This document shows positions 8,594 through 52,187 of a DNA stretch of 64,000 nucleotides, in pieces. The translations under genes were made by a program, and so were the position numbers. The notes under the pieces are model-generated. The model was not told the DNA's origin. It saw only the letters and a program-made list of their open reading frames with translations, and ran no database searches. Position 1 is the first letter of the stretch. Each line of letters starts with the position of its first letter. The DNA comes from Acidobacteriota bacterium. GTDB taxonomy: Bacteria > Actinomycetota > Acidimicrobiia > Spongiisociales > UBA5794. The stretch lies in assembly GCA_022562055.1 (NCBI GenBank), contig JADFQA010000011.1:11273-75272 (forward strand). The letters run 5' to 3'.

Positions 8594-9031
8594 TTACGCC
8601 CATGAATCCTTTTCTTGTGCGTCAATCATGAACTCAAGGGCTGTCTTGAGCTCTTTCTGTCGTTCGTTGAGCTTCGCAATCGTGTCTGCATTGTTTTCGT
8701 CGATCGCCTTGTTTATGGGCAGCGAGTACGCCTCTGGGTCTTGAACACTGAAGGAAGTGGCGGCAAATGGGGCTTTTATTCGTTGGCTATCCAATTCGGA
8801 TAGGCGTCGGTCGATGTGTTCGAGGTCGATGGTCAGCGCGGCAACGCTACGGCCGCGATCGGCCGCGAGTCGGATCTCTTTCCGGTAGTCGTCGAGCTCG
8901 TCCACTAGCGCGGCCCGGTCGGGGTCGTCGTTGGTCATGGTGCGGAGTTTGGAAGTGAGATCGCGAGCGAAGGCAAGAGCTTCGTCGATTGATGTGCTCA
9001 TGGGTGTCCTCGATCGGGTCGAAGTGTCCAC
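8594..9031 (-). CDS. hypothetical helical protein (alternative start ATG 9001 gives ATGA coupling to upstream lhr remnant)
   Basis: 145-aa ORF, coiled-coil-like, lower GC in 3' half; no recognisable motif. Confidence 0.4.
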   Translation of the reverse strand: MDTSTRSRTPMSTSIDEALAFARDLTSKLRTMTNDDPDRAALVDELDDYRKEIRLAADRGRSVAALTIDLEHIDRRLSELDSQRIKAPFAATSFSVQDPEAYSLPINKAIDENNADTIAKLNERQKELKTALEFMIDAQEKDSWA

Positions 9032-9834
9032 CCACGGTAGCCAGGCGCAAAACCGGCGTCACGTAAGGCGGGGCCGATCGACGATTCGGCTGGTGTGAGT
9101 CCGTTGACCTTGCCGACGGCGTGGCTGCGTCCCTGTACCCACTTGACCAATGCTGAAACTACCTGTCGCGGATCAGCGTCCGGTACAACCATCATGTTTT
9201 TTACACCCCGGGTCCAATACGCGGCAATTTCACCCTCAATGAGTACGACTGCGTGTCCGTGTCGTCGTTGGGCCTGATGTCGCCGAGGTCGGACCATGGC
9301 AGTGTCGAGCCGTATGGTTGCGACGGATCTGTGGCGCCAATCACGAACGGTCCCGCGTCAGCGGCACGACGCAACACGTCCACCGCTGTGGGTCGTGCAA
9401 ACTGCGCCCCGCCGAGGCCCTCGACGAAGTAGCCGCGGCGTATCAGGCCAGCCGACTCCAGAGCTGCGAGTACCGGGTAGATAGCGGAGAATCCGCCACG
9501 AACCCCTTCGGCACGGACGCCATCTCTGGTGACAATTCCATGGCGGTCAAGGAGGGTGTTCACGAGTGCAGTAGCGCGTTGCTCCTGCGTGGGGGGTGTG
9601 TCGGGGCGGACGAGTCGTTGGACGAGGGACCAACGTCAGCTTGTCTATCGCTGAAAGAAAAGCGGCCAACGTCTTGCCCGACCCCGTTGGTGCGTGGATC
9701 AACGTGTGTTCGCCGCGTTGAATCGCCTCCCAACCTTTGGTTTGTGCGGGAGTCGCGGACGGAAAGCTCTGCTTGAACCAGCCACCGGTCGCTGACGAAA
9801 ACTGCGTCAAGATGGTCACATTCGTAGGGTACAC
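8998..9834 (-). pseudogene. lhr: Lhr-family ATP-dependent helicase, degraded remnant (N-terminal motif I fragment + C-terminal fragments in three frames)
   Basis: ORF 9547..9834: ...WFKQSFPSATPAQTKGWEAIQRGEHTLIHAPTGSGKTLAAFLSAIDKL (Lhr N-terminus with Walker A) then frame lost; ORFs 9201..9563 (...LIRRGYFVEGLGGAQFARPTAVDVLR) and 8998..9297 (...VVLIEGEIAAYWTRG...) resemble Lhr C-terminal region; total 0.84 kb versus ~4.5 kb for intact lhr. Confidence 0.6.
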
Positions 9835-10077: not shown

Positions 10078-10728
10078 TTGCTGTCAAAACGGTCGGAGGA
10101 CCATGTGGATATTGCTGTCAACCTTGTCGAAACCTATCTCCGACTCACCGGGTATTTCACGTTGAGCGAGTTCGAGGTACAGCGGCGTGAGGACAACGGA
10201 ACCTACACCACGATCACGGACATCGACATCATGGCAATCAGGACGCCGGGCACGATTTTTGTAGGCGATCCTCACGGGAACATGCCGAACGCAATTGTGC
10301 TGCAAGACCCGGTGCTCGGACTAGAGGATGATGTCGTCGATGTCATCATTGGAGAGGTAAAACAAGGTGAGGCGGTATTGAATCCGGGGATCAAGGACCA
10401 CGGTGTGCTGCATTCGATGTTGCGAAGAGTCGAATGGTTATATGACACGCCGATTCAGGACGTAGTTCAAGGGCTCCAACGCGACATGACATGTCGGACG
10501 CCGGCGCGCGGAGGAGGCGAGATTCGCACCCGTATTGTCGCATTTGGGAGGGCCGACCGATCAACCGAAAACACGATCTCGATAAGCCAAATGATTGATA
10601 CGATCATCGGGTTCTTTGAAGAGTATGAGGCAGCGTTTCGTCCGCTCCAATTCAAGGATCCGGCACCGGCGTTTCTCAAACTGCTCCACAAGACCGGCTA
10701 CAGCCTTTCCCGAGAGTCCGAGTCCTAG
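10078..10728 (+). CDS. PD-(D/E)xK nuclease-fold protein, function unknown
   Basis: 216 aa; E (VETYLRLTGY) ... D (TDIDIMAIR) ... E-x-K (IIGEVKQGE) in canonical order/spacing of restriction-endonuclease-like fold; locally lower GC. Confidence 0.5.
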   Translation: MLSKRSEDHVDIAVNLVETYLRLTGYFTLSEFEVQRREDNGTYTTITDIDIMAIRTPGTIFVGDPHGNMPNAIVLQDPVLGLEDDVVDVIIGEVKQGEAVLNPGIKDHGVLHSMLRRVEWLYDTPIQDVVQGLQRDMTCRTPARGGGEIRTRIVAFGRADRSTENTISISQMIDTIIGFFEEYEAAFRPLQFKDPAPAFLKLLHKTGYSLSRESES

Positions 10729-11603: not shown

Positions 11604-12644
11604 TCATACCGAATCGTTGAGGAGGTCGATAAGTTGGCGGAGTTTGCCATGGCTGCGCCGGTCGAAATGAAGTCTCAACCGAAACAGGTCGACGTTGTCG
11701 TCGTCAGCGAGTTCGTGTTCAGTTGCCTCAATCTGTTCGATCCGGCCGCCGATGAGGATATCCGCAAAGTCGCTGTTTAGGGTCTCGAGGAGTTCGGTGC
11801 TCGGCTCGTGTTTGATCCTCAGTACAAGCTTCGCCTTCACATACCGCTGCGAATGGTAGTTCGCGTAGAAGTGCAGGATCTCCTCACAAGCCTCTTCGCA
11901 ATCGTTCGTGACCTTGAACAAGCTGAAGTCGTCCGGAGAGATCATGCCCTGGTCTCTAAGGTTCTCGACGAGTCTCACCCACGGTCCCCAGTAGTTGGTT
12001 CCCTCAGCTTCGATGAGGACGATGGGGTGGAGATCAGACTTGCCGGTCTGGATGAGTGTGAGCAACTCAAACGTTTCATCCTGGGTTCCAAACCCTCCGG
12101 GAAATACGACAAACGCGTCCGATTCTTTGACAAACATCAGCTTGCGGGTGAAGAAGTATTTGAAGTTGATGAGACGCGATTCGTGGATGTACTTGTTGGC
12201 GTCCGACTCGAATGGCAGTCTGATGTTGACGCCGAAGGTGTACTCGCGGCCAGCGCCCTTGTTGCCGGCCTCCATAATTCCCGGGCCTGCTCCGGTGATG
12301 ATCATCCAACGATGGTCGTCTGCCATTCGTGACGCAAAGTCTGCAGCGAGTTGGTAGTTTGGAGATCCCGGTGGTGTTCGTGCAGATCCATAGATCGTCA
12401 CTTTGGGTATGTCGCGGTACTGGGAAAAGATGACGAACGAGTACCGCATTTCTTTGATGGCTGTGTTTACGAGCTTGAGATCGCCTCGGTCGGTGTCGTC
12501 ACGCAGCAGCTTGAGGCCGCTCACCATCATTTCAGAAATGAGATCTACGTCATGCTCGTGTCCATCGTGGCCATCAAGAGCGGAGTTTATGAGTTCTGCG
12601 AGCTGTGCGTTGAGCGCCGGATCGCCTAGTGAGTATCGGCCCAT
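11604..12644 (-). CDS. LOG-family / TIGR00730 Rossmann-fold nucleotide-binding protein (PpnN-like long form)
   Basis: 346 aa; GAGPGIMEAGNKGA and PGGFGTQDETFE motifs diagnostic of LOG/YgdH family. Confidence 0.75.
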   Translation of the reverse strand: MGRYSLGDPALNAQLAELINSALDGHDGHEHDVDLISEMMVSGLKLLRDDTDRGDLKLVNTAIKEMRYSFVIFSQYRDIPKVTIYGSARTPPGSPNYQLAADFASRMADDHRWMIITGAGPGIMEAGNKGAGREYTFGVNIRLPFESDANKYIHESRLINFKYFFTRKLMFVKESDAFVVFPGGFGTQDETFELLTLIQTGKSDLHPIVLIEAEGTNYWGPWVRLVENLRDQGMISPDDFSLFKVTNDCEEACEEILHFYANYHSQRYVKAKLVLRIKHEPSTELLETLNSDFADILIGGRIEQIEATEHELADDDNVDLFRLRLHFDRRSHGKLRQLIDLLNDSV

Positions 12645-12730
12645 GTGTTCAACCTACAGTACATCGCCTGCGTACCGGACTATTTCGACTCAGACAGTGT
12701 CGTGTGTCGACGTCGAGACACCGTGGAGGG

Positions 12731-13216
12731 CTAGTCCCGAAAGTTCACGTATTGCAGCGGGAGCCGAAAGTTGAGGTCCTTAAGGAGCGCGATGACGTTC
12801 TGGAGGTCGTCACGTTTCTTGCCCTGGACGCGAAGCTGATCGCCCTGCACCTGGACCTGCACCTTCAGCTTGGAGTCGCGGATCGCCTTCCCGAGCTCTT
12901 TTGCGGCTTCCTGCGGAATGCCGTCATTGAGCGTGAACGCCGTGCGTACACGGCCCCCGGAAGCCGCCTCGACGTTCCCCTGTGTAATAGCTTTGGTCGA
13001 TATGCCGCGCTTGATGAGGCGCCCCTTCAACACGTCGATCGCGGCTTCCAGGCGCCCATCGGCGCTCGATTCGATCGTGATCGACTCGTCCGTGAGGTCG
13101 ATGGCAGTGTCGGTGCCCTTGAAGTCGTAGCGATTGGTGATTTCACGCATTGCTTGGTCAACCGCGTTGCGGAGTTCTTGTTTGTCGGTCTTTGAGACCA
13201 CGTCGAAAGCTGGCAT
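12731..13216 (-). CDS. yajQ: YajQ-family nucleotide/c-di-GMP-binding protein (UPF0234)
   Basis: Start at internal ATG (MPAFDVVSKTDKQELRNAVDQA...), typical YajQ N-terminus and ~160 aa length. Confidence 0.8.
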   Translation of the reverse strand: MPAFDVVSKTDKQELRNAVDQAMREITNRYDFKGTDTAIDLTDESITIESSADGRLEAAIDVLKGRLIKRGISTKAITQGNVEAASGGRVRTAFTLNDGIPQEAAKELGKAIRDSKLKVQVQVQGDQLRVQGKKRDDLQNVIALLKDLNFRLPLQYVNFRD

Positions 13217-13258
13217 AGGAATCAGCCTATCACCGACATCGCCCGCCATCTCGGACAT

Positions 13259-14248
13259 TCAAGAGAACGCTGGACCTTTGGGCCCGACACGGACGATTGC
13301 CGCCCACACGGTGTCGTAGTGATCTCGGTCAAACGGGTCGATGTGGGGAAGAATGAAGTCTTCCCACGCAGCACGCAGAGGGTCAGCCCGATGGTTGTGC
13401 ATGTGCAGGCCGGCGGGAAAGCGGTCAAGTACGCTGCGCAGCGACATCGGCGTTTCGACGCGGGTACGGGCGTCCGTTGAGGTGAATGATGTGTTTACTT
13501 CCACTGCGAGGCGGGCGATCAATGAGATGAACTCGCTGCCGAGGTTTGCGTGGCGTCGCTTCATCATCTTCGTCAACTCATCCTCTTTAGGGAAGTCCTT
13601 TTCCCATACGATCCACCGGTCGGCGAACGCCTTGTTTAGTGTCTGAGTGCCCGCGTAGTCGCGCAAATCGGTCGGATTTAGGGTTCCAAACACTCGAACA
13701 TCGGCGCGTAGCTTCACCATCTCGCCTGTGGGTAGCTCCAGCGCCTGGTGCCGATCCAAAAGACCGTGCAAGGCGAACAGCGTCTCAGCCCCTGCGGCGT
13801 TCAGCTCGGACAGGTTGATTAGCGCTGGGCCACGGAGCGCTCGGGTGATGTCTCCATCCTCCCATCGACTTTCGGTGCCACCTTTGCCGTCGCCGTACAG
13901 CTTCACGGACCCTATCAACGTAATGTCGCGCACCTCACCGGTGAGCGGAATGCGATAGTGCGGCATCCGAAGAATCGCCGCAAACTGCTCCAAGTCGTGG
14001 TCCTTGCCCGTCCCCATGTGGCCTCGTAGGGCAAGGTGGAGGGGTGTGTCCGCAAACGGTCCGCGCCGCACCGCCTCGAGCGCCGCGAGTTTGTACAACA
14101 TGCCGAGGTCCACATAGAACGGGTCGGGGGTTGGGATGTGCCCCATGCGACGCTCGTAGTCGGGCAACGATGGGTCGACCACCACGGTTTCGAGTTCGAT
14201 ATCGGGCTCAGCGCCGGTCGGGTGTTTAAACGTGACGACGTCCGTCAT
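13259..14248 (-). CDS. AAA_5 (MoxR/CobS/NorQ-like) ATPase with degenerate Walker A and B motifs
   Basis: 329 aa from ATG 14248 (ATGA overlap with upstream gene); Walker A GHMGTGKD (Asp where Ser/Thr expected), Walker B position ALINLSELNAA (Ser for Asp of DEIN), NPTD...ADRW C-terminal AAA_5 blocks. Confidence 0.65.
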   Translation of the reverse strand: MTDVVTFKHPTGAEPDIELETVVVDPSLPDYERRMGHIPTPDPFYVDLGMLYKLAALEAVRRGPFADTPLHLALRGHMGTGKDHDLEQFAAILRMPHYRIPLTGEVRDITLIGSVKLYGDGKGGTESRWEDGDITRALRGPALINLSELNAAGAETLFALHGLLDRHQALELPTGEMVKLRADVRVFGTLNPTDLRDYAGTQTLNKAFADRWIVWEKDFPKEDELTKMMKRRHANLGSEFISLIARLAVEVNTSFTSTDARTRVETPMSLRSVLDRFPAGLHMHNHRADPLRAAWEDFILPHIDPFDRDHYDTVWAAIVRVGPKGPAFS

Positions 14249-16494
14249 GCCGTGTTCCTCTTGTTCGAGGCGTAGTTGATTACTGGTGTGATTGACCACT
14301 TTCGAGATACCCCGAGGTGGTTCAGTGTTGTGTGAAGGGTGGAGCGGACGCCGTTGATTATTGCGGCAGTGAGCTCAGTCGGTTTTTCTACGACTTCATG
14401 ACGCCCATAGGCCGCCTCGACGGTGTTGTCGCCGATCCCTATCCCGAGCACCGTCGTTCCGTTGTGCTCCGTCATCGCTACCGTCTCCGCAAGCGCCTGG
14501 ACCGAGCCGCGAGTCATGCCGTCGGCGAGGACGACCAGAATCCGAGTTGACGTTCGGCGTCCTGCGAGTCGCTGTGCGGCAAACGCCACGTTGAACTCGT
14601 CAACGTTTGCTGCTTTGTCGAACATAGAGATCGGAGGTGCTGCTGCTCTGTCGAGGCGCGCCTGCTGCGCAGCTGCCGAGGGGGCAGAAGCCATCCAGAA
14701 CAATCCCGCAACCGTGTCCTTCGCAGTTCTCCATCGTTGATCGAACGACTTGAGCAGATAGTGGTTCACAGTGCGGGTGAGACGATCGGCGTTGCTGCCG
14801 TAACTCCGTTTGAGTCCACCGGTCGCGGCGTGCCGCCGGTCTGAGAATGTCGCTTCAGAGTCATCAGGCATTGCAGCAAACGCTCGGTTGAATATTGCGA
14901 CCTCGAACTCGATCTGGAGTTCGTCGCAGAGTTCCGCAAGCGACCATGCTCCCAACGTGGCCGCAGCAAGGGCCCACGGTGCTTGTGCCAGCGGCGAGTT
15001 TCGACTTGGCTGGAGCATGCTGGCCGAGCCGTCAATGAGCAGGCTGACGGCGTATGAGCGTCTTGTTGGACGGTCTCGTCTCTCGAACATCCGTTGGTAC
15101 AGCCCCGCACCCAACAACAAAGCCGCGTACGGTGAGAGGTCTCCCGCGTCGTACCCGGAGCGCAGACCACGGCGTTGGTTGGCAAGGAACAGCGGATACA
15201 GCTCACCCGACATCCGCCGCTGGGCGACACCCCACTGTTGCGCGGCTTGCGCAAGCTTGATGTGACCTTCGGCTGCAAATGCTGTGAATCGGTGTGGAAA
15301 CTCCGTCATAACTAGCTTGCCACTTTGGCCGGTTGGGAGATAAACCGACGGGGCCTCGGAGACACGTACGAGCTGGTCGCTTGCCGGGTCGCCGGCCTGA
15401 TCTGACGCGCCCTTGCGGCCGTCTTTGGCACTCACCGTCTGCGCTTGGCGTGTCTCCTCATACGACTCCATTGAGGCGAGCGGCGGCGTCACGATTCTGA
15501 CGGCATCTACGGTGTCAGAGATCGCGTTGACGTCGACCTCCTCTTTGAGCTTTCGGGTCGTGATCGAATCGCTGCGGCCATCTTCCTGCACAAGCCGATG
15601 GAGTTTCGCGACCTGGAGGATCTGGAGCGCAATCCCACCAACTGCCCATGGGTCCTGTGCGCCACGAACCTCGTCCAGAAAGGGCTGCGCGTCATCGAGA
15701 GCTGCCGCGACATGGGGAGCAGCCCGGCGGGCAACCTCGTCCCTGGTTAGGTAACCACCGACTATGAGGAAACATCCGAGGGCGTATTGGCCAAGTGGGC
15801 GGGCGTTTGCCAGCGCTTCTGGGGCAGCAGATCGGTAAAGGTCTCGTAACACGGATCGTGCGCCTTCGAAGGCGTCGAAGAATTGGAACTCCTGCCGAGC
15901 ATCTTCGAGCGAGAGGAACAACGCTTCGCCAACCATGCCGGCCGCCTCATGCAGTGCGTCGACGAGCGAGACCTCCACGACTTTCTGAGTGAGTGACACA
16001 TCACCTGGTGTGGGCGCGATGTCGGTGTCGAGGACGTCGGCGACTAAAGCGCCGATCTCGACGTCTTCGTCTTCGAAATCGAAAAGCGCAATGTTAAGCT
16101 GGAGTTCTTCTTCGTCCTCGTCATAGAGATGTTCGGCCACGGTCGGGCTGTCGGGCGTGATCCACGATTCCGGGATCGGGCGTTTCTCCTCGAAGTTGGT
16201 GGCGATCAGATGAACGACTTCATGTAGGGCCGAGGTGAGAGCAACCTCTGTCGGGGTCACCGGCGCGTGGCGGGCGTAGGCGGCTTGGAACACGGCCGGG
16301 TCTAGAACGATCTCGTCGGGACCGCCCGAAGATAGGGAGCCGAGGCGAACTTGGAGGTCCGGGTTGCCTGACAACGAGCGCGCAAAACGCGTGACGGCCG
16401 GTGCCACACGCTGGTAGCGGGCCACAACAGCTTCGATAGCCCGTTCTTCGATTGGCAGGATTTCGGCAAGTACCGACGTTGTCCGATCGCGCAT
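14245..16494 (-). CDS. VWA-domain protein (CobT/NorD/CbbO-like C-terminal VWA) with N-terminal HExxH-containing region
   Basis: 749 aa from ATG 16494; MIDAS LLIDGSASM ... VVLADG ... IGIGDN; N-terminal LHEVVHLIATNFE (HExxH). Confidence 0.65.
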   Translation of the reverse strand: MRDRTTSVLAEILPIEERAIEAVVARYQRVAPAVTRFARSLSGNPDLQVRLGSLSSGGPDEIVLDPAVFQAAYARHAPVTPTEVALTSALHEVVHLIATNFEEKRPIPESWITPDSPTVAEHLYDEDEEELQLNIALFDFEDEDVEIGALVADVLDTDIAPTPGDVSLTQKVVEVSLVDALHEAAGMVGEALFLSLEDARQEFQFFDAFEGARSVLRDLYRSAAPEALANARPLGQYALGCFLIVGGYLTRDEVARRAAPHVAAALDDAQPFLDEVRGAQDPWAVGGIALQILQVAKLHRLVQEDGRSDSITTRKLKEEVDVNAISDTVDAVRIVTPPLASMESYEETRQAQTVSAKDGRKGASDQAGDPASDQLVRVSEAPSVYLPTGQSGKLVMTEFPHRFTAFAAEGHIKLAQAAQQWGVAQRRMSGELYPLFLANQRRGLRSGYDAGDLSPYAALLLGAGLYQRMFERRDRPTRRSYAVSLLIDGSASMLQPSRNSPLAQAPWALAAATLGAWSLAELCDELQIEFEVAIFNRAFAAMPDDSEATFSDRRHAATGGLKRSYGSNADRLTRTVNHYLLKSFDQRWRTAKDTVAGLFWMASAPSAAAQQARLDRAAAPPISMFDKAANVDEFNVAFAAQRLAGRRTSTRILVVLADGMTRGSVQALAETVAMTEHNGTTVLGIGIGDNTVEAAYGRHEVVEKPTELTAAIINGVRSTLHTTLNHLGVSRKWSITPVINYASNKRNTA

Positions 16495-16558
16495 AAGAAT
16501 GCATTGTCTCACATGCGTCAAATCTTCCGATTCCGGCGTTGAGGCCTACGATTGGCTC

Positions 16559-16990
16559 ATGGAGCCCTTGGTGATCGATGCCAAACACGAAATCCCGGGC
16601 GCTGAGTTGATTGAGAGTTTCTCGACGTCAGGCGGGCCCGGTGGGCAGCACGCAAACCGCTCATCGACACGGGTGACCCTCACATTCGACCTTGGCGAAT
16701 CGGAAGTGTTTGACGATCTACTAAAGGGACGATTGCGGCGCAACCTTGGTCATCGTCTAACGAAGGGGGTGCTCGTTGTCGCGGTCGACGACAGCAGATC
16801 CCAGTGGCGTAACCGACAGCTTGCTCGAAGCCGGATGCGAGTTCTCTTGGTTGCTGCACTGCGCACGCAGAAGGTTCGGCGACCCACGCGCCCCACCCGA
16901 GCCGCACAACGCCAACGCGTCGACGAAAAAAAGGCGCGTGGTGAGACGAAACGTCTGCGGTCCAGGCCTCGGCACGACGACCCGCAGTAG
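16559..16990 (+). CDS. arfB: alternative ribosome-rescue factor ArfB (peptidyl-tRNA hydrolase, GGQ family)
   Basis: MEPLVIDAKHEIPGAELIESFSTSGGPGGQHANRSSTRVTL + basic C-terminal tail. Confidence 0.85.
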   Translation: MEPLVIDAKHEIPGAELIESFSTSGGPGGQHANRSSTRVTLTFDLGESEVFDDLLKGRLRRNLGHRLTKGVLVVAVDDSRSQWRNRQLARSRMRVLLVAALRTQKVRRPTRPTRAAQRQRVDEKKARGETKRLRSRPRHDDPQ

Positions 16991-21415: not shown

Positions 21416-22261
21416 CTAGAACAAGGCGCTTGCGAGTTGGCGCCGATACGAGATTGTCAGTGGATGCTCGTTGCCAAGCATCCCGAAGACGTCGAGCATT
21501 GCGCGTCGGGCGTCGTCGGTGTCTTCGCCCTTGTTCCGCACGATGAGCAGCATGTGATCGAGCGCCGGTTCGTGCTCTCCGCGCGCTGCCAGGGCCTGGG
21601 CGAGAGCAAGGCGGACTTCGTCGTCGTCATGGTCGAGATCGAGGGCTGCGGTGAGGGCGTTGATATCGTTGCCGGCAGCGTCGCTGAGACGTGCAGCCGC
21701 TTGCAGGCGATCGACTTCGTCACCTGGGGGAAGTTTTCCAAGAACGATGAGGGCGTCCGCAGTTTCTCCTCTGGCGATAAGCATGCTGGCGACGCTCGTG
21801 GCGGCGTCGTGGTGATCCGGTACCTCTGCCAGAACACCTCGAAAGAGCATCTCGGCGCGCTCGTTGTCGCCTGCCAGTGCAGCGCCTCGTGCTTCATCTA
21901 CCGTGCGGTCCAGTTCGGAAGGCAGCATCGACGCGATCCAGTCGCGGACTGCAGACTCAGGAAGCGCGCCCGAGAACTGCCCGACAGGCGAACCGTTGAC
22001 GAAAGCGACGATTGTGGGGATCGACTGCACTTTGAACTGCGTTGCAAGTTCTTGGTTCTCGTCGATATCCACCTTGGCGAGTATGAACTCGCCGTTCGCA
22101 GCTTCGGTGACTCGCTCAAGGATTGGGCTGAGTGTCTTGCAGGGCCCGCACCATGTCGCCCAGAAGTCCACAATCACCGGAATCTCTCGGCTACGAAGCA
22201 CCACCTCCTCGTTGAAGGTGTCTGTCGTCACATCGACGATATTTGCGCGTTGCTGTTCCAT
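21416..22261 (-). CDS. thioredoxin-domain + TPR co-chaperone (YbbN/CnoX-like)
   Basis: WATWCGPCK redox motif followed by Ala/Leu-rich TPR-like C-terminal half, 281 aa. Confidence 0.8.
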   Translation of the reverse strand: MEQQRANIVDVTTDTFNEEVVLRSREIPVIVDFWATWCGPCKTLSPILERVTEAANGEFILAKVDIDENQELATQFKVQSIPTIVAFVNGSPVGQFSGALPESAVRDWIASMLPSELDRTVDEARGAALAGDNERAEMLFRGVLAEVPDHHDAATSVASMLIARGETADALIVLGKLPPGDEVDRLQAAARLSDAAGNDINALTAALDLDHDDDEVRLALAQALAARGEHEPALDHMLLIVRNKGEDTDDARRAMLDVFGMLGNEHPLTISYRRQLASALF

Positions 22262-22304
22262 GGACGAGAAGGTTAGTCGACGTCGGTCTGCTAGGTTTCA
22301 CGCG

Positions 22305-23201
22305 ATGAACGAATCCCTTGAGTCGCCATTTGGACCGGTATTGACCGCTGTCCTCACTCCGTTTGATGAAGCAGGCGCGGTTGACTACGAGACGTTCTGG
22401 CGGCTTGTGCGGCACCTCCTCGAAAACGGATCAGACGGGGTTGTCGTCGCCGGAACCACCGGGGAGTCGCCAACCCTGTCAAAGGTCGAAAAGATCGCAA
22501 TGTTCAAGGCCGCGGTCGAAGCTGCTGCAGGCAGAGGTGTCGTGATCGCCGGCACCGGAACGTACAACACTGCGGAGTCGGTCGAGATGACGCAGCGCGC
22601 CGCGGATCTCGGCTGTGACGGCGTCATGGCGGTGACGCCGTACTACTCAAAACCGCCCCAGGAAGGAATCTACCGGCATTTCATGGCGATCGCCGATGCG
22701 ACCGACCTTCCGCTGGTGGTCTACAACATTCCGGGGCGCACCTCGCGTCTGATCGAAGTCGACACCATGGCGCGCATCACGGAACATCCGCGGGTCGTGG
22801 CCATCAAAGACGCCACCGAGGATTTGGATTACGCCGACAAACAGTTCGCGGCGATCGACGGGCAGGCCGCGGTCTACTCAGGTGCTGATGCGTTCACGCT
22901 CGAGCTGCTTCGCCGCGGCGGCATCGGGGTTATTTCGGTGGCCGCACATCTGGTCGGCAACCAGGTCAGGGCGATGGTCGACGCGTACATTGCGGGTGAA
23001 GAGGAACAAGCGCAAGACCTCCACGATCTGATGTCCGATGTTGTTGACTCACTGTTTCTGGAACCGAACCCGATGGGTCTCAAGGCCGCAATGTCGTCGT
23101 TGTGGGGTGCGGTCGGTGACCCGCGGCTTCCTCTGATTCAGGCACAAGGGCAGACGCTGCATCTGATAGAGGTCGGTGTTAGAAAGGTTCTCGGTCAATG
23201 A
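22305..23201 (+). CDS. dapA: 4-hydroxy-tetrahydrodipicolinate synthase
   Basis: start ATG 22305 (MNESLESPFGPVLTAVLTPF); GTTGES, catalytic Lys region YNIPGRT; upstream 147 codons of ORF are antisense artefact. Confidence 0.9.
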   Translation: MNESLESPFGPVLTAVLTPFDEAGAVDYETFWRLVRHLLENGSDGVVVAGTTGESPTLSKVEKIAMFKAAVEAAAGRGVVIAGTGTYNTAESVEMTQRAADLGCDGVMAVTPYYSKPPQEGIYRHFMAIADATDLPLVVYNIPGRTSRLIEVDTMARITEHPRVVAIKDATEDLDYADKQFAAIDGQAAVYSGADAFTLELLRRGGIGVISVAAHLVGNQVRAMVDAYIAGEEEQAQDLHDLMSDVVDSLFLEPNPMGLKAAMSSLWGAVGDPRLPLIQAQGQTLHLIEVGVRKVLGQ

Positions 23202-34089: not shown

Positions 34090-35925
34090 TTACCGGAGGA
34101 CTCGGAGGGCAGTTTGGCGTAACCCCTCGGCATCCAGGCCGAGCTCTCGCAGTATTTTGGCGGGTTTGGCGTGCGGAATGAATTTCACGGGGACTCCCAT
34201 AACGTCAACACGACACGACGCTCCCATGTCTTCGAGCGCCGTGCGGATACCGGTACCGGCGCCGCCTTGTCTGAAGCCGTCCTCGATCGTGATGACGACG
34301 TCGTGGCGGGCAGCATCCTCAAGCATCGACTCGTCGAGAGGTTTGACAATCCGCGGGTCCCACACCGTTGTCTCAATTCCGTCGCTTGCGAGCAGCTCCG
34401 CGGCCTCGAGCGCCGGTGCGAGCATTTTGCCGACGCCGATGATGCAGAGCCGGTCGCCTGTACCGAGACGCGCCCGGCGCGCTGACAGGCCTGATCCCAC
34501 CTCGTCCTCTCCTGCAACAACGGCTTCGGTCTTCGGCCAACGAATCGACACCGGGCCATCACACAGCGAAACGGCGTCGGCCATCATTACCTGGAGTTCC
34601 TGATATGACGATGGTGCCATCACTGTCATCCCTGGCACCTTGGTGCACAGCACCATGTCGAGGACTCCGTGATGTGACGGCCCATCGTCTCCCGTGATTC
34701 CGGCGCGGTCGAGGCAAAAGATGACGTGCTGACCGAGCAGCCCGACATCCAGGTTTGCCTGATCGAATGCTCGGGTGAAGAACGTCGAGTAGATCGCGAC
34801 GACCGGTATCAGTCCGCCGAGGGCCATTCCGGCGGCGGCCGTCACTGCGTGTTGTTCGGCGATCCCGACGTCGAAGCTTCGATTTGGGAATCGCTCCGCA
34901 AAGGCGAGGACGCCAGTCGAATCGGGCATGGCGGCTGTGATGGCGACCAGGTTGGCGTGTTCCTCGCCGAGTTTGCAAAGGGTTTCCGTGAACGCCGCGG
35001 TGTAGCTTCCGGGGCTGATCGAACCGGTATCGTGCATCAGCTTGATGTTGTCGTTCTCCGCCGGTGCGTAACCCCGACCCTTCTGCGTGAGAACATGGAC
35101 GACGGTGGGTCCGTCGAATTTGGCAGCATTGCGCAGCGCGTTCTCGACCTCTTTGATGTTGTGTCCGTCGAAAGGCCCGATATAACGCACGCCAAGGTGC
35201 TCGAAGAAAGCCGGCGGTTCCCAAAAGTGCCTGATCGCCGCTTTCGCTGCTCCGAGAGCCCGGAACAGGAACCCCCCAAAGCGAGGAACATTCTCGGTCA
35301 CTTCCTCAAGCTTGCGCTGCCGCCGCATGTAAATCGGGTTCGAACGGATCTTGACAAGGCTGCCGCCGAGCATCGAAATCGTCGGTGCGTAACTGCGGCC
35401 GTTGTCGTTGAGGACGATCGTGATCTTGCGCCCTGAGTGACCGAGGTTATTGAGGCCTTCAAACGCCATCCCACCAGTCATCGAACCATCGCCTATCACT
35501 GCAACAATGTGGCCGTGATCCTTCGAATCGTCCAGGTCCCTGGCGGTTGCGAGGCCGTAGGCATAGGAGAGGACCGTGCTGGCGTGACTGTTTTCGATGA
35601 TGTCGTGTTCGGATTCTTCGGCACTGAGATAGCCACTTAGCCCGCCCTCTTTGCGCAGGTTTGCGAACCCCTCGCGGCGGCCGGTCACGATCTTGTGGAT
35701 GTACGCCTGGTGACCCGTGTCCCAGAGGATCAAATCTTTCGGCGATTCGAACACTCGGTGTAGCGCAAGCGTCAGTTCGACAACACCAAGGTTCGAACCA
35801 AGGTGGCCTCCGTTAGCCGTTACCGAGTCGACGACCAGCGTGCGGATCTCATCCGCCAGAACATCGAGTTCGTCGTAGTCGAGTCGACGGAGGTCCGCCG
35901 GCTCGTTGATGTGCTCCAGATACAT
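34090..35925 (-). CDS. dxs: 1-deoxy-D-xylulose-5-phosphate synthase
   Basis: start at MYLEHINEPADL (codon 214 of the over-long ORF); GHLGSNLGVVELT, LWDTGHQAYIHKI, GDGSMTGGMAFEGLN ThDP motifs; 611 aa. Confidence 0.9.
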   Translation of the reverse strand: MYLEHINEPADLRRLDYDELDVLADEIRTLVVDSVTANGGHLGSNLGVVELTLALHRVFESPKDLILWDTGHQAYIHKIVTGRREGFANLRKEGGLSGYLSAEESEHDIIENSHASTVLSYAYGLATARDLDDSKDHGHIVAVIGDGSMTGGMAFEGLNNLGHSGRKITIVLNDNGRSYAPTISMLGGSLVKIRSNPIYMRRQRKLEEVTENVPRFGGFLFRALGAAKAAIRHFWEPPAFFEHLGVRYIGPFDGHNIKEVENALRNAAKFDGPTVVHVLTQKGRGYAPAENDNIKLMHDTGSISPGSYTAAFTETLCKLGEEHANLVAITAAMPDSTGVLAFAERFPNRSFDVGIAEQHAVTAAAGMALGGLIPVVAIYSTFFTRAFDQANLDVGLLGQHVIFCLDRAGITGDDGPSHHGVLDMVLCTKVPGMTVMAPSSYQELQVMMADAVSLCDGPVSIRWPKTEAVVAGEDEVGSGLSARRARLGTGDRLCIIGVGKMLAPALEAAELLASDGIETTVWDPRIVKPLDESMLEDAARHDVVITIEDGFRQGGAGTGIRTALEDMGASCRVDVMGVPVKFIPHAKPAKILRELGLDAEGLRQTALRVLR

Positions 35926-36549
35926 TGGTCGAAGGTTCTCCGAAAAGAGGCTCAGCGGGGAATGTCGCGAGAACACTACCGCAAGTCGACACCGACATCT
36001 CTCGAATACTGCGTCTTGGTGATCGGCAACCGCCCGTTTCGATTGCACTATCGACGGCTGGCGCGGGAGCAGATCGGGAAGACCCTGGCTGACGAGGGCG
36101 CGACCTATTCCGACAAGTAGGGTTGTCTCATGAAGAAAACCACACAAGCCGCCACCTGGTCGGTGTCGGTGGGTTCGCTGGAATGTCCAGAATGCGGTGC
36201 GAATGCCGTCTCGACCGCGCCGGCGCCGTGGCGCCGTAGTGTTACCACATTCGTGCTGAAGGGCTCGCGCGTCCCGACGGTGTCGGTTTGTGACGCCGGT
36301 CACCAATGGCCCGCGGCGCGGCTGACAACACATCGCATCAAGGGTCGACGGCTTCGATGACCTCAGCGGACGGCGGCGACCGCCACTGACGCTGGAGCCG
36401 TGCTTGCTGATCACCAACCGCAAGGCGATGTGTGTGTGATGTTGGACCCTGCTGGTCACCCATTCTGCGTGTTTTAGGGCTTCATTCCGGTGGTGCTGTC
36501 GCGGGTGGAAAACACCAGTAAGAATCCCAAGAAATGTTGGGTTTTGGGG

Positions 36550-36578
36550 TTGACAATCGAACAAGTGTTCGATAGATT
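36550..36578 (+). promoter_or_regulatory. promoter TTGACA-17-TAGATT with embedded perfect LexA/SOS box TCGAAC-AAGT-GTTCGA (36557..36572); ATG 7 nt after -10 (leaderless)
   Basis: read directly; matches actinobacterial/mycobacterial SOS box consensus TCGAAC-N4-GTTCGA. Confidence 0.75.
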
Positions 36579-36584: not shown

Positions 36585-37985
36585 ATGAGTTACGCCCAGT
36601 TAGCAGCAACGGACAAACCCCGTAATACGGTGGGTGCTGGCACCGTGACGGGTTCGAGTGGTTCGGATTTCGAACCAATATTCTTTGACACACCCCACAT
36701 GGACGCCCGGGCAATACCCGTGGGGCTTGATGACATAGAACCCGGTGCCGTCCTCGCGTTCATCCTCGACGGTATCAATATCGGGGAACTGTGTGGTTAT
36801 GACCGGGTCATAGTGTTACGAGCCCACCAACGCTTGGTATCTCACTACCAAGCACAGCTTTACACAGACATGGCTGGCATCACGACAGTATTCGAGAACC
36901 CCACCGACACCCCAAACCACGTCGCCGACCATGTTTCTGGCGAGCCTTCTGGGGGTCCCAGTTTTGATGCTGTCAGGGATGCCGGTGTTGAGATCGGTTG
37001 TGCGTTACATCTCACCCGCCGCGCCGCCGACACCGAGCTTGGTGTAGCGCTTGAGCTCACTGGTCGGCTCCCGAGGCTCCATGAGATGCTCACCCTGGGC
37101 CTGGTAGATGTGCGGCGGGTAAAATGTATGTCTGCTGCCACTATCCACCTCGACACTGACACCGCCCGGGGTGTGATTGATAGTGTTGCTAACGAGGCCC
37201 CCGGGTTAACCACAGGGCAGCTCAGAGCCCGCATCGCGAAACTCTGCATCAACGTAAACCCTGATGATGCTGCCCGACGCTTTCAAACAGCACACGGGGA
37301 CCGTCGGGTTGTGATGGAAGCAACCACTGAGGGCACAGCCAACCTGATGGGTCTTGCTCTGGAACCAGGCCGGGTAGTGGAGATCACCAACCGGATCAAC
37401 AACTTGGCTAAAAGTCTCAGACGGGGCGGTGAGACACGCACCATGGACCAGTTACGAGCCGACGTCTACGTCGACCTACTGACAGGCACCAACTATCACG
37501 CTGCGGGTCGGGGTGTGATCCATATCACCACCGATCTTCAAACCCTCACCCGCCTCAACGATCATCCTGGTGACCTGGGTGGCTACGGGCCAGTAATAGC
37601 TGACATTACCCGCCAAATCGTCGCCCAAAACGCTGACACCAAAACTGAGTGGCGCTGGTCCATTACCGATCCTGACACGGGTGAACTCACCCACACCGGA
37701 ACCACGACCCGCCGCCCCGGTGCCGCGATACGCCGCGCAGTTGAGATGCGCCACACGACCTGTGTGTTCCCCGGATGCCGCATGCCATCCGTCGAATCCG
37801 ATTTGGATCACCGTGACCCAGTCACCCACGGCGGACCCACCACGCCGCCTAACCTGGCACCGTTATGCAGGTTCCACCACACCCAAAAACACCTCGACTG
37901 GCGCCTCGAAAAACTCGACAACGGCGACTACCAGTGGACCAGCCCCCTCGGCCACACCTACACCACTCGCCGAGCACCACCCTAA
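36585..37985 (+). CDS. DUF222 + HNH endonuclease protein (REP13E12-family repeat protein)
   Basis: 466 aa; C-terminal HNH HRDPVTHGGPTTPPNLAPLCRFHHTQKH with CxxC...CxxH; architecture of mycobacterial 13E12 repeat proteins. Confidence 0.8.
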   Translation: MSYAQLAATDKPRNTVGAGTVTGSSGSDFEPIFFDTPHMDARAIPVGLDDIEPGAVLAFILDGINIGELCGYDRVIVLRAHQRLVSHYQAQLYTDMAGITTVFENPTDTPNHVADHVSGEPSGGPSFDAVRDAGVEIGCALHLTRRAADTELGVALELTGRLPRLHEMLTLGLVDVRRVKCMSAATIHLDTDTARGVIDSVANEAPGLTTGQLRARIAKLCINVNPDDAARRFQTAHGDRRVVMEATTEGTANLMGLALEPGRVVEITNRINNLAKSLRRGGETRTMDQLRADVYVDLLTGTNYHAAGRGVIHITTDLQTLTRLNDHPGDLGGYGPVIADITRQIVAQNADTKTEWRWSITDPDTGELTHTGTTTRRPGAAIRRAVEMRHTTCVFPGCRMPSVESDLDHRDPVTHGGPTTPPNLAPLCRFHHTQKHLDWRLEKLDNGDYQWTSPLGHTYTTRRAPP

Positions 37986-39687: not shown

Positions 39688-40944
39688 ATGTCCATGATTG
39701 TTGAGACGCTGGCGGTGGGGACCGAGCTTTTACTCGGTCAGATAGCAAACACAAACGCCGCTGCGATCGGTGAACGGCTTGCCGAAAACGGTTTGACCCA
39801 TCTCCATCAGACAGTTGTCGGTGACAACATGGACCGCATGGTTGGGGCGATCAGACTCGCCATGTCGCGCGCCGATGCGTTGATCATCACGGGTGGCATA
39901 GGACCGACGGCTGACGATGTCACCCGAGAGGCCATCTGTCTCGCAACCGACCGAGCGACGGCTTTCAGCGAAGAGTACGCTGCCGAGCTACGAGAGCGAT
40001 GGCAGCGCCTTGGGCGTGACATGCCGCCGTCGAACCTTCGCCAGGCTGAGTACCCCGAGGGCGGGGAGCTGCTGGAAAACCCGAAGGGATCGGCCCCCGG
40101 CGTGTATATCGAGCACGAAGGCACGATGATCTTTTCGCTGCCGGGGGTGCCGGCGGAGATGTTGCCGATGGTGGATGCGCAGGTGCTCCCGCGGATTCTC
40201 GCTGCTGCCGGCGACCAGGGCGTTCTGATTAGTCGCATCATTCGCACGTTTGGCGAGTCCGAAGCGAAGGTCGGTGAATTGCTATCGGACATTTTCGAGA
40301 CAAGCGAGAACCCGACGGTTGCGTACCTCGCGTCGGCATCTGAGATCAAGATACGGCTGACGGCTCGGGCACCAGACGCTGAAGCAGCCCGTGCGCTTAT
40401 CGCCCCGATCGAAGCGATCGTCGTTGAGCGACTGGGGCACCGGATATTCGGGTTCGACGCCGACACGATCGAGCGTGGATTGGCGTCTCGGCTTCTGGAG
40501 CGAGGGTGGACGATTGGTACCGCTGAATCCGCAACGGGCGGCCTTATATCAGGCAGGTTGACGACTATCCCCGGTTCCAGCGGTTGGTTTCGTGGTGGGA
40601 TTGTTGCGTACCACGAAGACGTCAAGGTCGGAATCCTCGGGGTGTCACCGCTCACGATCGACGAATACGGTGTGGTGTCCGAAGAGGTCGCCATCGAAAT
40701 GGCGCGCGGTGCCCAAACGGCGCTTGGTGTTGAAGTTGCGGTGTCAGTCACCGGCTCGGCCGGTCCCGACCCGCTTGGCAAAGACGTCGGAACAATGGTC
40801 ATTGCAGTGGCAACACCCGATGATATCCGTGCCCGTACGTCGCGCTTGCCGGGTGACAGGGAGCGAATTCGCGCATACACGGCGACGGCCGCGCTCCACT
40901 TGGTGCGCCTTGCATTGGACGGCGTGTGGTGGGAGACGTCGTAG
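39688..40944 (+). CDS. cinA: competence/damage-inducible protein CinA (NMN amidohydrolase PncC family)
   Basis: MSMIVETLAVGTELLLGQIANTNAA MoCF-biosynthesis-like N-domain + CinA C-domain, 418 aa. Confidence 0.85.
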   Translation: MSMIVETLAVGTELLLGQIANTNAAAIGERLAENGLTHLHQTVVGDNMDRMVGAIRLAMSRADALIITGGIGPTADDVTREAICLATDRATAFSEEYAAELRERWQRLGRDMPPSNLRQAEYPEGGELLENPKGSAPGVYIEHEGTMIFSLPGVPAEMLPMVDAQVLPRILAAAGDQGVLISRIIRTFGESEAKVGELLSDIFETSENPTVAYLASASEIKIRLTARAPDAEAARALIAPIEAIVVERLGHRIFGFDADTIERGLASRLLERGWTIGTAESATGGLISGRLTTIPGSSGWFRGGIVAYHEDVKVGILGVSPLTIDEYGVVSEEVAIEMARGAQTALGVEVAVSVTGSAGPDPLGKDVGTMVIAVATPDDIRARTSRLPGDRERIRAYTATAALHLVRLALDGVWWETS

Positions 40945-41492
40945 ACATTGACACGCCGCGGCGCCTGTTCGTCGGCGTAGCGGTTGACAACGAGGCTCGT
41001 CATACGCTGGCGCACGCCTTGCAGATTGCCGGCGTCGAGATGATCGGCAAGCCGGTTCCGCCAAAATCGTGGCATGTCACCCTACGGTTTCTGGGCTTGA
41101 CCTCGCCGGTTGTGCAAGACCTGTTCATGCGAGAGCTTGAGGAAACGATCAGCGTTGCGCCGTTCACGTTGCGACTCCACACGATCGGTTCCTTCCCGCG
41201 ATCCGACAAAGCGACCGTTTTGTGGTTGGGGGCCGACGGGGGAGACGCACTTGCGATACTCGGTGCTCAGTGTGAGGCTGCTGCCGAGGTGGTCGGTTTT
41301 GAACCTGAGGGTCGCCCGTTTGTCCCTCACCTCACGCTGTCGCGCATTCGTCCACCCGCCGACGTCCGTGAATTGACCCGTATCGAGATTCCAGCGATTC
41401 GGACCAAGGTTGATCGGGTGACGCTGTTCCGGTCGTATTCGGGCGCAGGTGGCGTTGTCTACGAACCGGTCGATGAGATCATGCTTGGCTGA
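40926..41492 (+). CDS. thpR: RNA 2',3'-cyclic phosphodiesterase (2H phosphoesterase, ThpR/LigT)
   Basis: two HxT/SxS motifs (HVTLRFLG and HLTLSR), 188 aa; overlaps cinA 3' end by 19 nt. Confidence 0.8.
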   Translation: MVGDVVDIDTPRRLFVGVAVDNEARHTLAHALQIAGVEMIGKPVPPKSWHVTLRFLGLTSPVVQDLFMRELEETISVAPFTLRLHTIGSFPRSDKATVLWLGADGGDALAILGAQCEAAAEVVGFEPEGRPFVPHLTLSRIRPPADVRELTRIEIPAIRTKVDRVTLFRSYSGAGGVVYEPVDEIMLG

Positions 41493-52010: not shown

Positions 52011-52083
52011 TGCGGACGTAGCTCAGTTGGTAGAGCGCAACCTTGCCAAGGTTGAGGTCGCCGGTTCGAACCCGGTCGTCCGC
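52011..52083 (+). tRNA. tRNA-Gly (GCC)
   Basis: cloverleaf folded by hand: acceptor GCGGACG/CGUCCGC, anticodon loop UUGCCAA, T-loop GGUUCGAAC; no encoded CCA. Confidence 0.9.
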
Positions 52084-52090
52084 TCGACGA

Positions 52091-52116
52091 ATGGATGGCT
52101 GGTGTCATCCGTTTTT
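52091..52116 (+). terminator. hairpin GGATGgctggtgtCATCC + TTTTTT between tRNA-Gly and tRNA-Cys
   Basis: read directly. Confidence 0.5.
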
Positions 52117-52187
52117 TGGCGACATGGCCGAGTGGCTAGGCAAGGGTCTGCAAAACCCTGTACCCGGGTTCGAATCCCGGTGTCGCC
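52117..52187 (+). tRNA. tRNA-Cys (GCA)
   Basis: acceptor GGCGACA/UGUCGCC, anticodon loop CUGCAAA, T-loop GGUUCGAAUCC. Confidence 0.85.

Follow-up and report, generated by a model that had tools for sequence, protein, structure and literature searches.

The closest described relatives of the gene pair analysed here combine an AAA_5 ATPase with a partner that carries a von Willebrand A (VWA) domain. CobS/CobT, the motor of aerobic cobaltochelatase, is represented by the Brucella cryo-EM structure (bioRxiv 10.64898/2026.07.21.739949) and by the Rhizobium pair. It consists of an AAA_5 protein of about 330 aa and a partner in which an N-domain, M48C-peptidase-like in CobT, is combined with a disordered acidic stretch, a shaft ahead of the VWA domain, and the VWA/MIDAS domain itself. 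In Brucella, helix alpha1 of CobT contacts CobS_S and the shaft comprises Q373-R413 (bioRxiv 10.64898/2026.07.21.739949). NorQ/NorD pairs a hexameric MoxR-class AAA_5 ATPase with a VWA protein that extends a finger into the pore (PMC13036017). The pore-inserted shaft or finger is the principle common to CobST and NorQD. Midasin (Rea1/MDN1) likewise has AAA_5 and MIDAS domains and pulls assembly factors off a large complex, but it is a single eukaryotic polypeptide of about 4900 residues with six fused AAA domains, and its likeness to the present pair is at the level of domain families only. Canonical cobS-cobT of Rhizobium is ordered ATPase-first, as are nor clusters. A VWA-first order without CobN context is common to the present pair and the CobT-like (metallopeptidase-vWA) plus MoxR pairs of phages and plasmids (PMC7824862, PMC8651126).

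The pair studied here was located in a stretch of 64,000 nucleotides, the window. It is a real, strongly conserved two-gene module of an AAA+ motor and a VWA adaptor and a distant relative of CobS/CobT, which it resembles over its full length. As judged from sequence, it appears to be a divergent variant of the CobS/CobT-type motor pair and not a canonical CobS/CobT orthologue.

Locus and gene neighbourhood

The pair and its flanking genes held the following positions.

14245-16494, minus strand: large adaptor gene, CobT-like, with zincin-like N-domain, acidic insert, shaft and VWA/MIDAS, 749 aa (ORF, homologues, AF2 model)
13259-14248, minus strand: AAA_5 ATPase gene, CobS-like and colinear with CobS, 329 aa (Pfam AAA_5, PDB sequence matches, alignment)
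14245-14248, minus strand: ATGA start/stop overlap of the large gene and the ATPase gene (sequence)
12731-13216, minus strand: yajQ (DUF520), starting 42 bp past the ATPase stop codon, a common neighbour, though not in all loci (Pfam 5.6e-62)
16559-16990, plus strand: arfB-like gene encoding an RF-1 domain and a GGQ motif, divergent, a common neighbour, though not in all loci (Pfam RF-1 3e-15)

The original prediction of a 749-aa gene followed by a 329-aa AAA_5 gene with a 4-bp ATGA overlap was borne out, with both genes on the minus strand. The length of 749 aa is counted from ATG; the ORF opens upstream at TTG 16521, and homologues begin with MRDR or MRRR. The overlap, preceded by GAGGAA, was real in the window but was not a family trait, since gaps of 36 and 105 bp were present in the two closest homologous loci checked. 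The two neighbours, also predicted, were confirmed by Pfam. The likely start of the arfB-like gene at 16559 was 64 bp from the large gene, and no terminator-like site was found between the ATPase gene and yajQ.

The predicted lack of cobalamin, nor, cbb and cox clusters around the pair held in the window and also in 85 related loci, whose neighbourhoods covered flanks of about 6-8 kb around the match in either direction; the locus thus did not have the context of NorQ/NorD or CbbQ/CbbO. Neither a CobN-sized ORF nor a cobalamin riboswitch was found in the 64-kb window. The larger ORFs scanned in it were all housekeeping genes (dapB, dapA, rnj, ftsK, thrC, dxs, miaB, recA, rny). Two expectations about such pairs had to be given up. 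The VWA-first order, held to be odd, was also present on a mobile-element-like metagenomic contig and on an Acinetobacter plasmid. Proximity to the serviced enzyme is no rule, as canonical Rhizobium cobS-cobT lies between a J-domain gene and rpmB.

The large CobT-like protein

Six features were assigned to the large protein, all on the minus strand.

16369-16452, minus strand: N-terminal helix aa 15-42 (IEERAIEAVVARYQRVAPAVTRFARSLS), nearly invariant (conservation; helix 15-42 in the AF2 model)
16210-16224, minus strand: HEVVH aa 91-95 (H91, E92, H95), zincin-type predicted metal-binding motif (conservation)
15979-16197, minus strand: acidic insert aa 100-172, disordered, separating the HExxH helix from the Glu helix (pLDDT, composition)
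15889-15891, minus strand: E202 in helix 177-205 (EDARQE), a candidate for the third zinc ligand (invariance)
15061-15222, minus strand: shaft-like segment aa 425-478 (YPLFLANQRRGLRSGYDAGDLSPYAALLLGAGLYQRMFERR), just before the MIDAS (near-invariant, low pLDDT)
14317-15054, minus strand: VWA domain aa 481-726 with complete MIDAS (D488, S490, S492, T575, D658) (Foldseek, profile, invariance)

The large protein had more than 1000 homologues, all annotated as hypothetical. The motifs named in the original prediction (LLIDGSASM, VVLADG, IGIGDN and HEVVH) were all present, and the assignment to a VWA plus AAA_5 module of CobT/CobS type was supported by Pfam, PDB matches, alignments and fold matches. 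The HMM searches that had been proposed matched PF07728 (AAA_5) in the ATPase. In the large protein, CobT_C (PF11775) scored 17.7 bits, below the 21-bit cut-off, and was borderline with 21.2 bits in the Actinomarina homologue. PF06213, PF13203 and PF09967 gave no match (E <= 0.1 for the latter two), which sets the protein outside the DUF2201 metallopeptidase plus VWA families in Pfam. Beyond its own family, an exhaustive search returned only CobT-family proteins, making these the nearest outgroup. Most CobT-like relatives scored 45-72 bits against 16.6 bits for canonical CobT, and the family profile matched the PDB CobT chains 21vt_A and 9uka_G. The protein showed the CobT layout, with an N-domain, an acidic disordered stretch, a shaft-like segment ahead of the VWA domain, and a DxSxS...T/N...D MIDAS in that domain.

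The AF2 model had a mean pLDDT of 74.8, with moderate quality in the N-domain (about 70 over aa 15-110) and values below 50 over aa 116-170. The best fold matches of the N-domain in BFVD were R4T663 of HHTV-2 (355 aa) and a protein of Gordonia phage GMA7, with a query-normalised TM-score of 0.49-0.55; the model thus matched the N-domain fold of Gordonia phage and haloarchaeal virus CobT-like proteins. In size, R4T663 would fit the N-terminal half of cobT, which is split in HHTV-2, and this is its candidate identity. A match to phrog_5298 (PHROGs) covered aa 17-77. By analogy with helix alpha1 of Brucella CobT, aa 15-42 probably form the docking helix for the small subdomain of the ATPase.

A predicted zincin-like N-domain with HExxH was fused to the VWA domain, in a gene upstream of the ATPase gene. 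HEVVH was kept in 119/120 homologues, and HExxH was invariant in both family branches and in five metagenomic CobT-like proteins, which kept HExxH...E as the large protein does. It was replaced by DSMALR in canonical CobT and by DQEVAK in the Acinetobacter plasmid copy. E202 was invariant in the family, in the CobT-like proteins and even in canonical CobT. The insert between the HExxH and Glu helices contained 21 D/E against 3 K/R and varied in length among homologues; unlike the acidic stretch of CobT, it lies inside the N-domain.

Via P0379, aa 425-478 aligned to the pre-MIDAS stretch of Brucella CobT, and this segment may insert into the ATPase pore. The best Foldseek PDB matches of the VWA domain were the NorD VWA 9qh8_G (2e-6) and the MDN1 MIDAS domain 8ql1. 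NorD has no zincin-like N-domain, however, and its finger projects out of the VWA domain; in the large protein, as in CobT, the candidate shaft lies ahead of that domain. The MIDAS residues were invariant in the family, with DGSAS at aa 488-492.

The ATPase and its Walker motifs

The ATPase matched Pfam AAA_5 with 1e-11, and its gene adjoins a VWA gene with intact MIDAS, as in MoxR-class AAA+/VWA pairs. Midasin AAA domains were its best PDB sequence matches; CobS 9ujv, NorQ (3e-10) and CbbQ were matched as well. Its score of 49.7 bits was far below the 558.55-bit cut-off of the NCBIfam CobS equivalog TIGR01650. The ATPase profile gave canonical CobS 58 bits, compared with 12.8 bits for the MoxR partner on the plasmid. 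The catalytic motifs were as follows.

14000-14023, minus strand: Walker A GHMGTGKD (K82, D83), with Asp at the position of the Mg-binding Ser/Thr (homologue motif counts)
13805-13810, minus strand: Walker B LINLSELN (Ser147-Glu148), with Ser at the position of Asp and the catalytic Glu kept (homologue motif counts)
13436-13678, minus strand: sensor-1 N191 (13676-13678), Arg finger R211 (13616-13618) and sensor-2 R271 (13436-13438) (invariant columns)

The ATPase was colinear with Rhizobium CobS (330 aa), including sensor-1 Asn, Arg finger and sensor-2 Arg, and these residues lay within 0-6 residues of their counterparts in Brucella CobS, N186, R210 and R271 (bioRxiv 10.64898/2026.07.21.739949). 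They were counted in 120/120, 120/120 and 113/120 homologues, respectively. The Walker motifs differed. Rhizobium CobS has GYHGTGKS and ALVFDEYD, i.e. GKS and DE against GKD and SE in the window, where the canonical patterns GxxGxGK[S/T] and hhhhDE were not matched. GTGKD was present in 120/120 homologues and in the Ca. Actinomarina branch, LSELN in 120/120 homologues, aligned to DE of midasin and CobS. ATPase copies on mobile elements did not show this change. The family thus carries a reciprocal Ser/Thr-Asp swap between Walker A and Walker B, invariant across the family in both deep branches. Together with the CobT-like shaft and the narrow vertical distribution in Acidimicrobiia, the swap goes beyond the original prediction.

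In P-loop NTPases, activity is normally lost when either the Ser/Thr of Walker A or the Asp of Walker B is replaced (PMC9599734), so the ATPase could be one that binds nucleotide but does not hydrolyse it. The protein would then be a relic that has lost catalysis and serves, with its P-loop inactivated, as a nucleotide-binding scaffold in a structural role, and the replacement of both residues, called strictly conserved and essential in P-loop NTPases, fits this. We consider it improbable, as the replacement is reciprocal and invariant in both deep branches, the catalytic Glu148 is retained together with the sensor-1 Asn, the Arg finger and the sensor-2 Arg, and the ATPase gene is the most conserved of the locus. 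Asp83 and Ser147 may instead be a compensated swap of the Ser/Thr-Asp pair, so that the ATPase would still hydrolyse ATP.

Inheritance, client and proposed mechanism

In 81/81 related loci whose sequence extended far enough downstream, the ATPase gene directly followed the large gene. Its product was the most conserved protein of the neighbourhood, with a median identity of 75% compared with 64% for the M16 peptidase and 57% for DapB. Both observations indicate strong selection on the pair. A family scan matched about 308 species genomes; the 80 loci listed were all from MAGs, most of them titled Acidimicrobiia or Actinomycetota. The family is narrow and limited to uncultured Acidimicrobiia, in which the pair is inherited vertically across two orders. 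Its chromosomal position was fixed within a housekeeping block, typified by dapB, arfB and yajQ, in the 85 loci surveyed.

This position bears on whether the pair is a mobile or anti-phage conflict module of the vWA-MoxR type or a recently acquired phage gene pair. Phage protein families (PHROGs) were matched, and the closest CobT-like relatives, which have the same gene order, include one on a mobile-element-like contig and one on a plasmid. For such a module, a patchy distribution with variable context is expected and the opposite was observed: unlike the mobile pairs, the window pair was chromosomal, vertically inherited and clade-restricted. Neither protein was matched in PADLOC, no member was found in IMG/VR, no integrase or effector gene was found near the pair, and its composition was that of the surrounding window. 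The ATPases of mobile pairs are also longer (414-433 aa with an N-terminal extension) than the CobS-like ATPase of 329 aa. A mobile origin therefore has a very small likelihood.

A survey for a third partner, suggested in the original prediction, identified no conserved one. yajQ was directly downstream of the ATPase gene in 39/75 loci, and arfB was divergent within 400 nt in 56/72. These frequencies, together with midasin AAA domains as best ATPase matches and the MDN1 match of the VWA domain, would suit a midasin-like remodeller for quality control of ribosomes or translation, with a functional link to arfB on the opposite strand and perhaps to yajQ. The high midasin score is, however, the sum over six AAA_5 domains. 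The flanking genes are part of a housekeeping block with broad synteny, and their adjacency may thus reflect inheritance only. Ca. Actinomarina minuta carries the pair, yet arfB, yajQ and the M16 peptidase were all absent from its locus. A link to translation is accordingly given little weight.

The Ca. Actinomarina genome is also relevant to a genuine, highly diverged CobS/CobT motor of aerobic cobaltochelatase, with CobN encoded elsewhere. Such a motor would explain the overall CobS/CobT architecture and colinearity and the 58 bits of canonical CobS; the Actinomarina ATPase is named cobaltochelatase CobS in IMG and UniRef, and canonical cobS-cobT can lie apart from other cob genes. Nevertheless, the window pair scored far below the family cut-offs, both for the CobS equivalog and for the CobT Pfam families. 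The two genes are adjacent as in CobS/CobT, but the order of T-like then S-like is the reverse of the canonical one. The window pair also has the Walker swap and still carries HExxH, which canonical CobT has lost. The neighbourhoods examined showed no cob gene, CobN or other cobalamin link, and the pair is retained in a genome of about 800 genes (PMC4285135). It also occurs across UBA5794-type MAGs. For the order UBA5794, B12 genes are described as enriched only in sponge-associated lineages (PMC12008989), with K00768 apparently in 9/84 free-living and 12/14 sponge-associated genomes, in data whose column labels are not visible. Taken together, a diverged chelatase motor is unlikely. Because the pair survives in the small Ca. 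Actinomarina genome, its client is probably a core protein and not CobN.

The best explanation, with a probability of roughly 0.55, is that the pair forms an AAA+ motor and its adaptor of the CobS/CobT type, acting in the manner of CobST or NorQD but on some client that is not CobN. Most likely the pair is a chaperone that uses ATP to remodel or mature its client and may also have peptidase activity. By homology, the ATPase would assemble as a hexameric ring, the N-terminal helix and zincin-like domain of the adaptor would dock on its small subdomain, and adaptor aa ~425-478 would be threaded into its pore. The MIDAS face may hold an acidic residue of the client protein. ATP turnover would then twist or pull the adaptor, and the client would be remodelled for metal-cofactor insertion, assembly or processing. 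The HExxH...E site of the adaptor is predicted to bind zinc and may add a proteolytic step; it might also be structural only, because canonical CobT and the Acinetobacter plasmid copy work without HExxH.

A more far-reaching joint reading is tentative and, on balance, rather doubtful: a fully active AAA+ motor with Walker A Asp and Walker B Ser exchanged, driving a new ATP-dependent, MIDAS-targeted zinc protease or maturation factor that is essential in Acidimicrobiia. If it is true, the ATPase would amount to a reciprocal-swap experiment done by nature on the Ser/Thr-Asp module proposed for proton relay and Mg coordination, and the peptidase site would be on the VWA adaptor, not on the ATPase. 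The system would then be essential in Acidimicrobiia, among them one of the smallest free-living cells known.

The gene pair and its surroundings

The gene pair encodes an AAA+ ATPase of the MoxR class and its VWA partner. It belongs to the CobS/CobT branch, as a motor and adaptor of the CobST type, and as a system it is real and looks ordinary in kind. Within that kind it is a variant specific to one clade and stands out by two strictly conserved, unusual traits, a swap of Walker residues and a retained zincin motif. The two-gene arrangement of the original prediction was confirmed, with both ORFs, the ATGA overlap and the neighbours yajQ and arfB all present:

14245-16494, minus strand, large ORF, 749 aa counted from ATG
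13259-14248, minus strand, ATPase, 329 aa, Pfam AAA_5 (1e-11)
14248-14245, minus strand, ATGA common to both genes, with GAGGAA just before it
14000-14023, minus strand, Walker A GHMGTGKD, with Asp where the Mg-binding Ser/Thr follows Lys
13805-13810, minus strand, Walker B LINLSELN, with Ser for Asp and the catalytic Glu kept
start 42 bp past the ATPase stop, yajQ (DUF520, by Pfam)
divergent, upstream of the large gene, arfB-like RF-1 gene with GGQ motif (by Pfam)

The quoted motifs were found as HEVVH (aa 91-95), DGSAS (488-492), LADGMTRG and GIGIGD. The claimed lack of a cobalamin context also held: no CobN-sized ORF was present within the 64-kb window, and Rfam over the whole window gave three tRNAs and nothing else, with no cobalamin riboswitch. 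The remainder of the window was housekeeping, comprising a two-component system, a LOG-like gene, an MDMPI-like gene, an M16 peptidase, dapB, dapA, RNase J, ftsK, thrC, dxs, two MiaB/RimO-type enzymes, recA and RNase Y.

The arfB ORF (16499-16990, plus strand) had its mechanical start at ATG 16499, giving 163 aa. Since the homologues have 141 aa, the true start is probably ATG 16559 (MEPLVID...). With this start, the divergent intergenic region between arfB and the large gene measured 64 bp and held no sigma-70-like promoter match. Scans of 12500-16800 gave no promoter-like site, which was within chance expectation, and one terminator-like site at chance level, located within the large gene.

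The longest ORFs of dapA (21864-23201, plus strand, 445 aa, domain from aa 156) and dxs (34090-36564, minus strand, 824 aa, domain from aa 216) both had long N-terminal stretches without domain match, and their true starts are probably further downstream. A DUF222-domain ORF (36585-37985, plus strand) adjoined dxs. The bins at 34-38 kb had negative GC skew, in contrast to nearly all others in the window. A cluster of three tRNA genes (52012-52284, plus strand) was flanked by ORFs without Pfam match (50483-51577 and 52455-53615). Pfam matches were also absent for ORFs at 10078-10728 (plus), 8594-9031 (minus), 9318-9776 (plus) and 39807-41075 (minus); of these, the one of 216 aa was kept in only a few related loci. 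NCBI record MCH7668603.1, identical to the large protein, was labelled as an 'Acidobacteria bacterium' MAG. This is probably a taxonomic mis-assignment, because its close relatives, without exception, and the synteny point to Acidimicrobiia (Actinomycetota).

Sequence features of the ATPase and the adaptor

In a PDB sequence search, the ATPase matched solved CobS 9ujv (6e-13), NorQ, CbbQ and midasin, the last through its AAA_5 domains. Matches to the CobS equivalog (49.7 bits, cut-off 558) and to phage family phrog_249 were weak. The protein was colinear with a canonical Rhizobium CobS of 330 aa (L087) in the alignment. Sensor-1 N191, Arg finger R211 and sensor-2 R271 were invariant columns, and the positions of their counterparts in Brucella CobS differ by a few residues (bioRxiv 10.64898/2026.07.21.739949). 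The window ATPase has GKD and SE in place of the normal GKS and DE, which are found in canonical CobS and in two mobile-element ATPases. Both changes occurred in 120 of the 120 homologues listed and in the deep Ca. Actinomarina branch. In a survey of P-loop NTPases, the same two residues are described as strictly conserved, mutually hydrogen-bonded and each essential (PMC9599734). As the swap is reciprocal and invariant, and all other catalytic residues are kept, its sequence pattern suggests compensation and not decay. Such an unusual natural variant bears on the current question of whether the pairing of Walker A Ser/Thr with Walker B Asp is obligatory for catalysis.

For the large protein, predicted to be CobT-like, HMM search with Pfam gave only a CobT_C hit of 17.7 bits, below the 21-bit cut-off, and no match to PF06213, PF13203 or PF09967; sequence comparison of the protein with the PDB gave no direct match. 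Searched exhaustively with the large protein, a set of 1.84 billion cluster representatives yielded one full-length family representative, one distant full-length member at 31% identity (P0251, from the Ca. Actinomarina lineage) and fragments. Outside the family, matches covered the VWA part only; among those scanned, PF11775 was found in 10 of 10 and PF06213 also in several. The family profile matched the solved CobT chains 21vt_A and 9uka_G. For P0348, a CobT-like protein, the N-terminal part gave nothing useful against the PDB by sequence.

The large protein comprised a nearly invariant helix (aa 15-42), an HExxH helix, an E202 helix and an acidic disordered insert (aa 100-172). A near-invariant, poorly modelled segment (aa 425-478) lay immediately N-terminal to the MIDAS, the metal site of the VWA domain (D488, S490, S492, T575 and D658). 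Through the CobT-like protein P0379, this segment aligned to the pre-MIDAS stretch of Brucella CobT, the region to which the cryo-EM work assigns the shaft. A preprint on CobSTN cryo-EM describes an M48C-peptidase-like CobT N-domain that binds the CobS small subdomain, a disordered linker of ~90 residues after it, a shaft (Q373-R413) that goes into the ring pore and a VWA domain with its MIDAS turned towards CobN (bioRxiv 10.64898/2026.07.21.739949). Each of these four parts has a counterpart in the large protein. This places the gene family, so far hypothetical in annotation and nearly without Pfam assignment, as a divergent CobT-like adaptor.

HExxH...E was invariant in the family and in five metagenomic CobT-like proteins. 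At the HExxH position, canonical CobT has DSMALR and the copy on an Acinetobacter plasmid (L088) DQEVAK, in contrast to HEVVH in the window protein. The motif thus looks ancestral, with at least two losses, and constrained in this family. Its retention in relatives and loss in canonical CobT suggests that the chelatase adaptor CobT descends from an active peptidase-VWA protein.

Distribution, synteny and mobile-element relatives

Relatives were present in 308 genomes in a scan with one genome per species. All 80 loci listed were MAGs, most titled Acidimicrobiia or Actinomycetota, UBA5794 included; the few other taxon labels among them are probably due to mis-binning. The synteny comprised dapB, the M16 peptidase and arfB on one side, and the pair, yajQ, the LOG-like and the MDMPI-like gene on the other. 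In each of the 81 loci with enough downstream sequence, the adaptor gene was directly followed by the ATPase gene. On one TARA scaffold from the Ca. Actinomarina lineage (L003, 3499-4575), no gene was called for the ATPase, as an assembly gap (a stretch of N) interrupts it. The architecture and conservation of the pair are direct observations. Median identity to the window proteins was 75% for the ATPase and 62% for the adaptor, with YajQ at 68%, M16 at 64%, DapB at 57% and ArfB at 47%.

A conserved third partner, sought among the orthologue neighbourhoods, did not emerge. yajQ lay directly downstream of the pair in only 39/75 loci and arfB was divergent from it in 56/72. The P0251 locus adjoined dapB and lacked arfB, the M16 peptidase and yajQ. 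Both yajQ and arfB were rejected as obligate components, since many loci lack them or have them rearranged, as does Ca. Actinomarina. An ArfB- or ribosome-linked role of the pair has adjacency as its one argument. The 4-bp ATGA overlap was likewise rejected as a family trait, as the closest homologues checked have gaps of 36 and 105 bp.

The VWA-first order, taken at first as an oddity of this locus, recurred in a CobT-like/AAA_5 pair on a contig with integrase, ParA and Pol III alpha genes, and on a 114-kb Acinetobacter plasmid. Relatives of P0379 were found on over 1000 plasmids in PLSDB. Most of these were non-mobilizable, those listed measured ~106-118 kb, and the hosts were Klebsiella, Escherichia, Acinetobacter, Yersinia and Salmonella. 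In the example examined, A. baumannii plasmid NZ_CP150098.1 (L088, 4992-8303), the P0379 relative precedes a gene for a MoxR-family ATPase and is the copy with DQEVAK instead of HExxH. The large-protein profile scored 45-72 bits for HExxH-bearing relatives and 16.6 for canonical CobT, and the ATPase profile 58 bits for canonical CobS versus 12.8 for the plasmid ATPase. MoxR and metallopeptidase-vWA pairs are described in jumbo phages (Iyer et al., PMC7824862); tailed viruses widely carry cobST clusters, and cyanophage cobT often has a peptidase annotation (Liu et al., PMC8651126). An IMG/VR scan showed no relatives of the pair. A defence-system reading was dropped, with 0 PADLOC hits for the pair.

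Proposed mechanism and role

A cobaltochelatase role of the pair is disfavoured. Scores were far under the family cut-offs, the active site was altered, the housekeeping context was fixed and the pair persists in Ca. Actinomarina. In UBA5794, B12 genes are reportedly enriched only in sponge-associated lineages (PMC12008989), and in the accessible part of the supplements to that paper cobN, K02230, K09882 and K09883 did not occur, which is weak evidence. A literature search for B12 auxotrophy in Actinomarinales gave nothing usable. For the Ca. Actinomarina protein, the existing CobS label calls for caution and should not be taken as evidence of B12 synthesis. On Rhizobium sp. NLR16a plasmid p3 (L087, 950-3857), an annotated canonical cobS-cobT pair lay between a J-domain protein gene and rpmB, the latter a few genes away, with no other cob genes within 3.5 kb; true CobST is thus not always clustered with its pathway.

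For the CobST-type motor and adaptor, assembly steps may be drawn from CobST and from NorQD, whose pore-inserted finger follows the same principle as the CobT shaft (PMC13036017). ATPase subunits would form a hexameric ring, to which the adaptor would be anchored through its N-terminal helix and zincin-like domain, with the shaft going into the pore. The MIDAS face could then grip an acidic residue of the client, which ATP-powered twisting or pulling would remodel.

UniRef100_S5DMK9, from Ca. Actinomarina minuta, was identical to the partner ATPase of P0251; this organism has about 800 genes (PMC4285135). The pair ranks with the best-conserved genes around it and has been kept through extreme genome streamlining. 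A core process of the abundant marine and sediment Acidimicrobiia therefore probably relies on a CobST-like motor.
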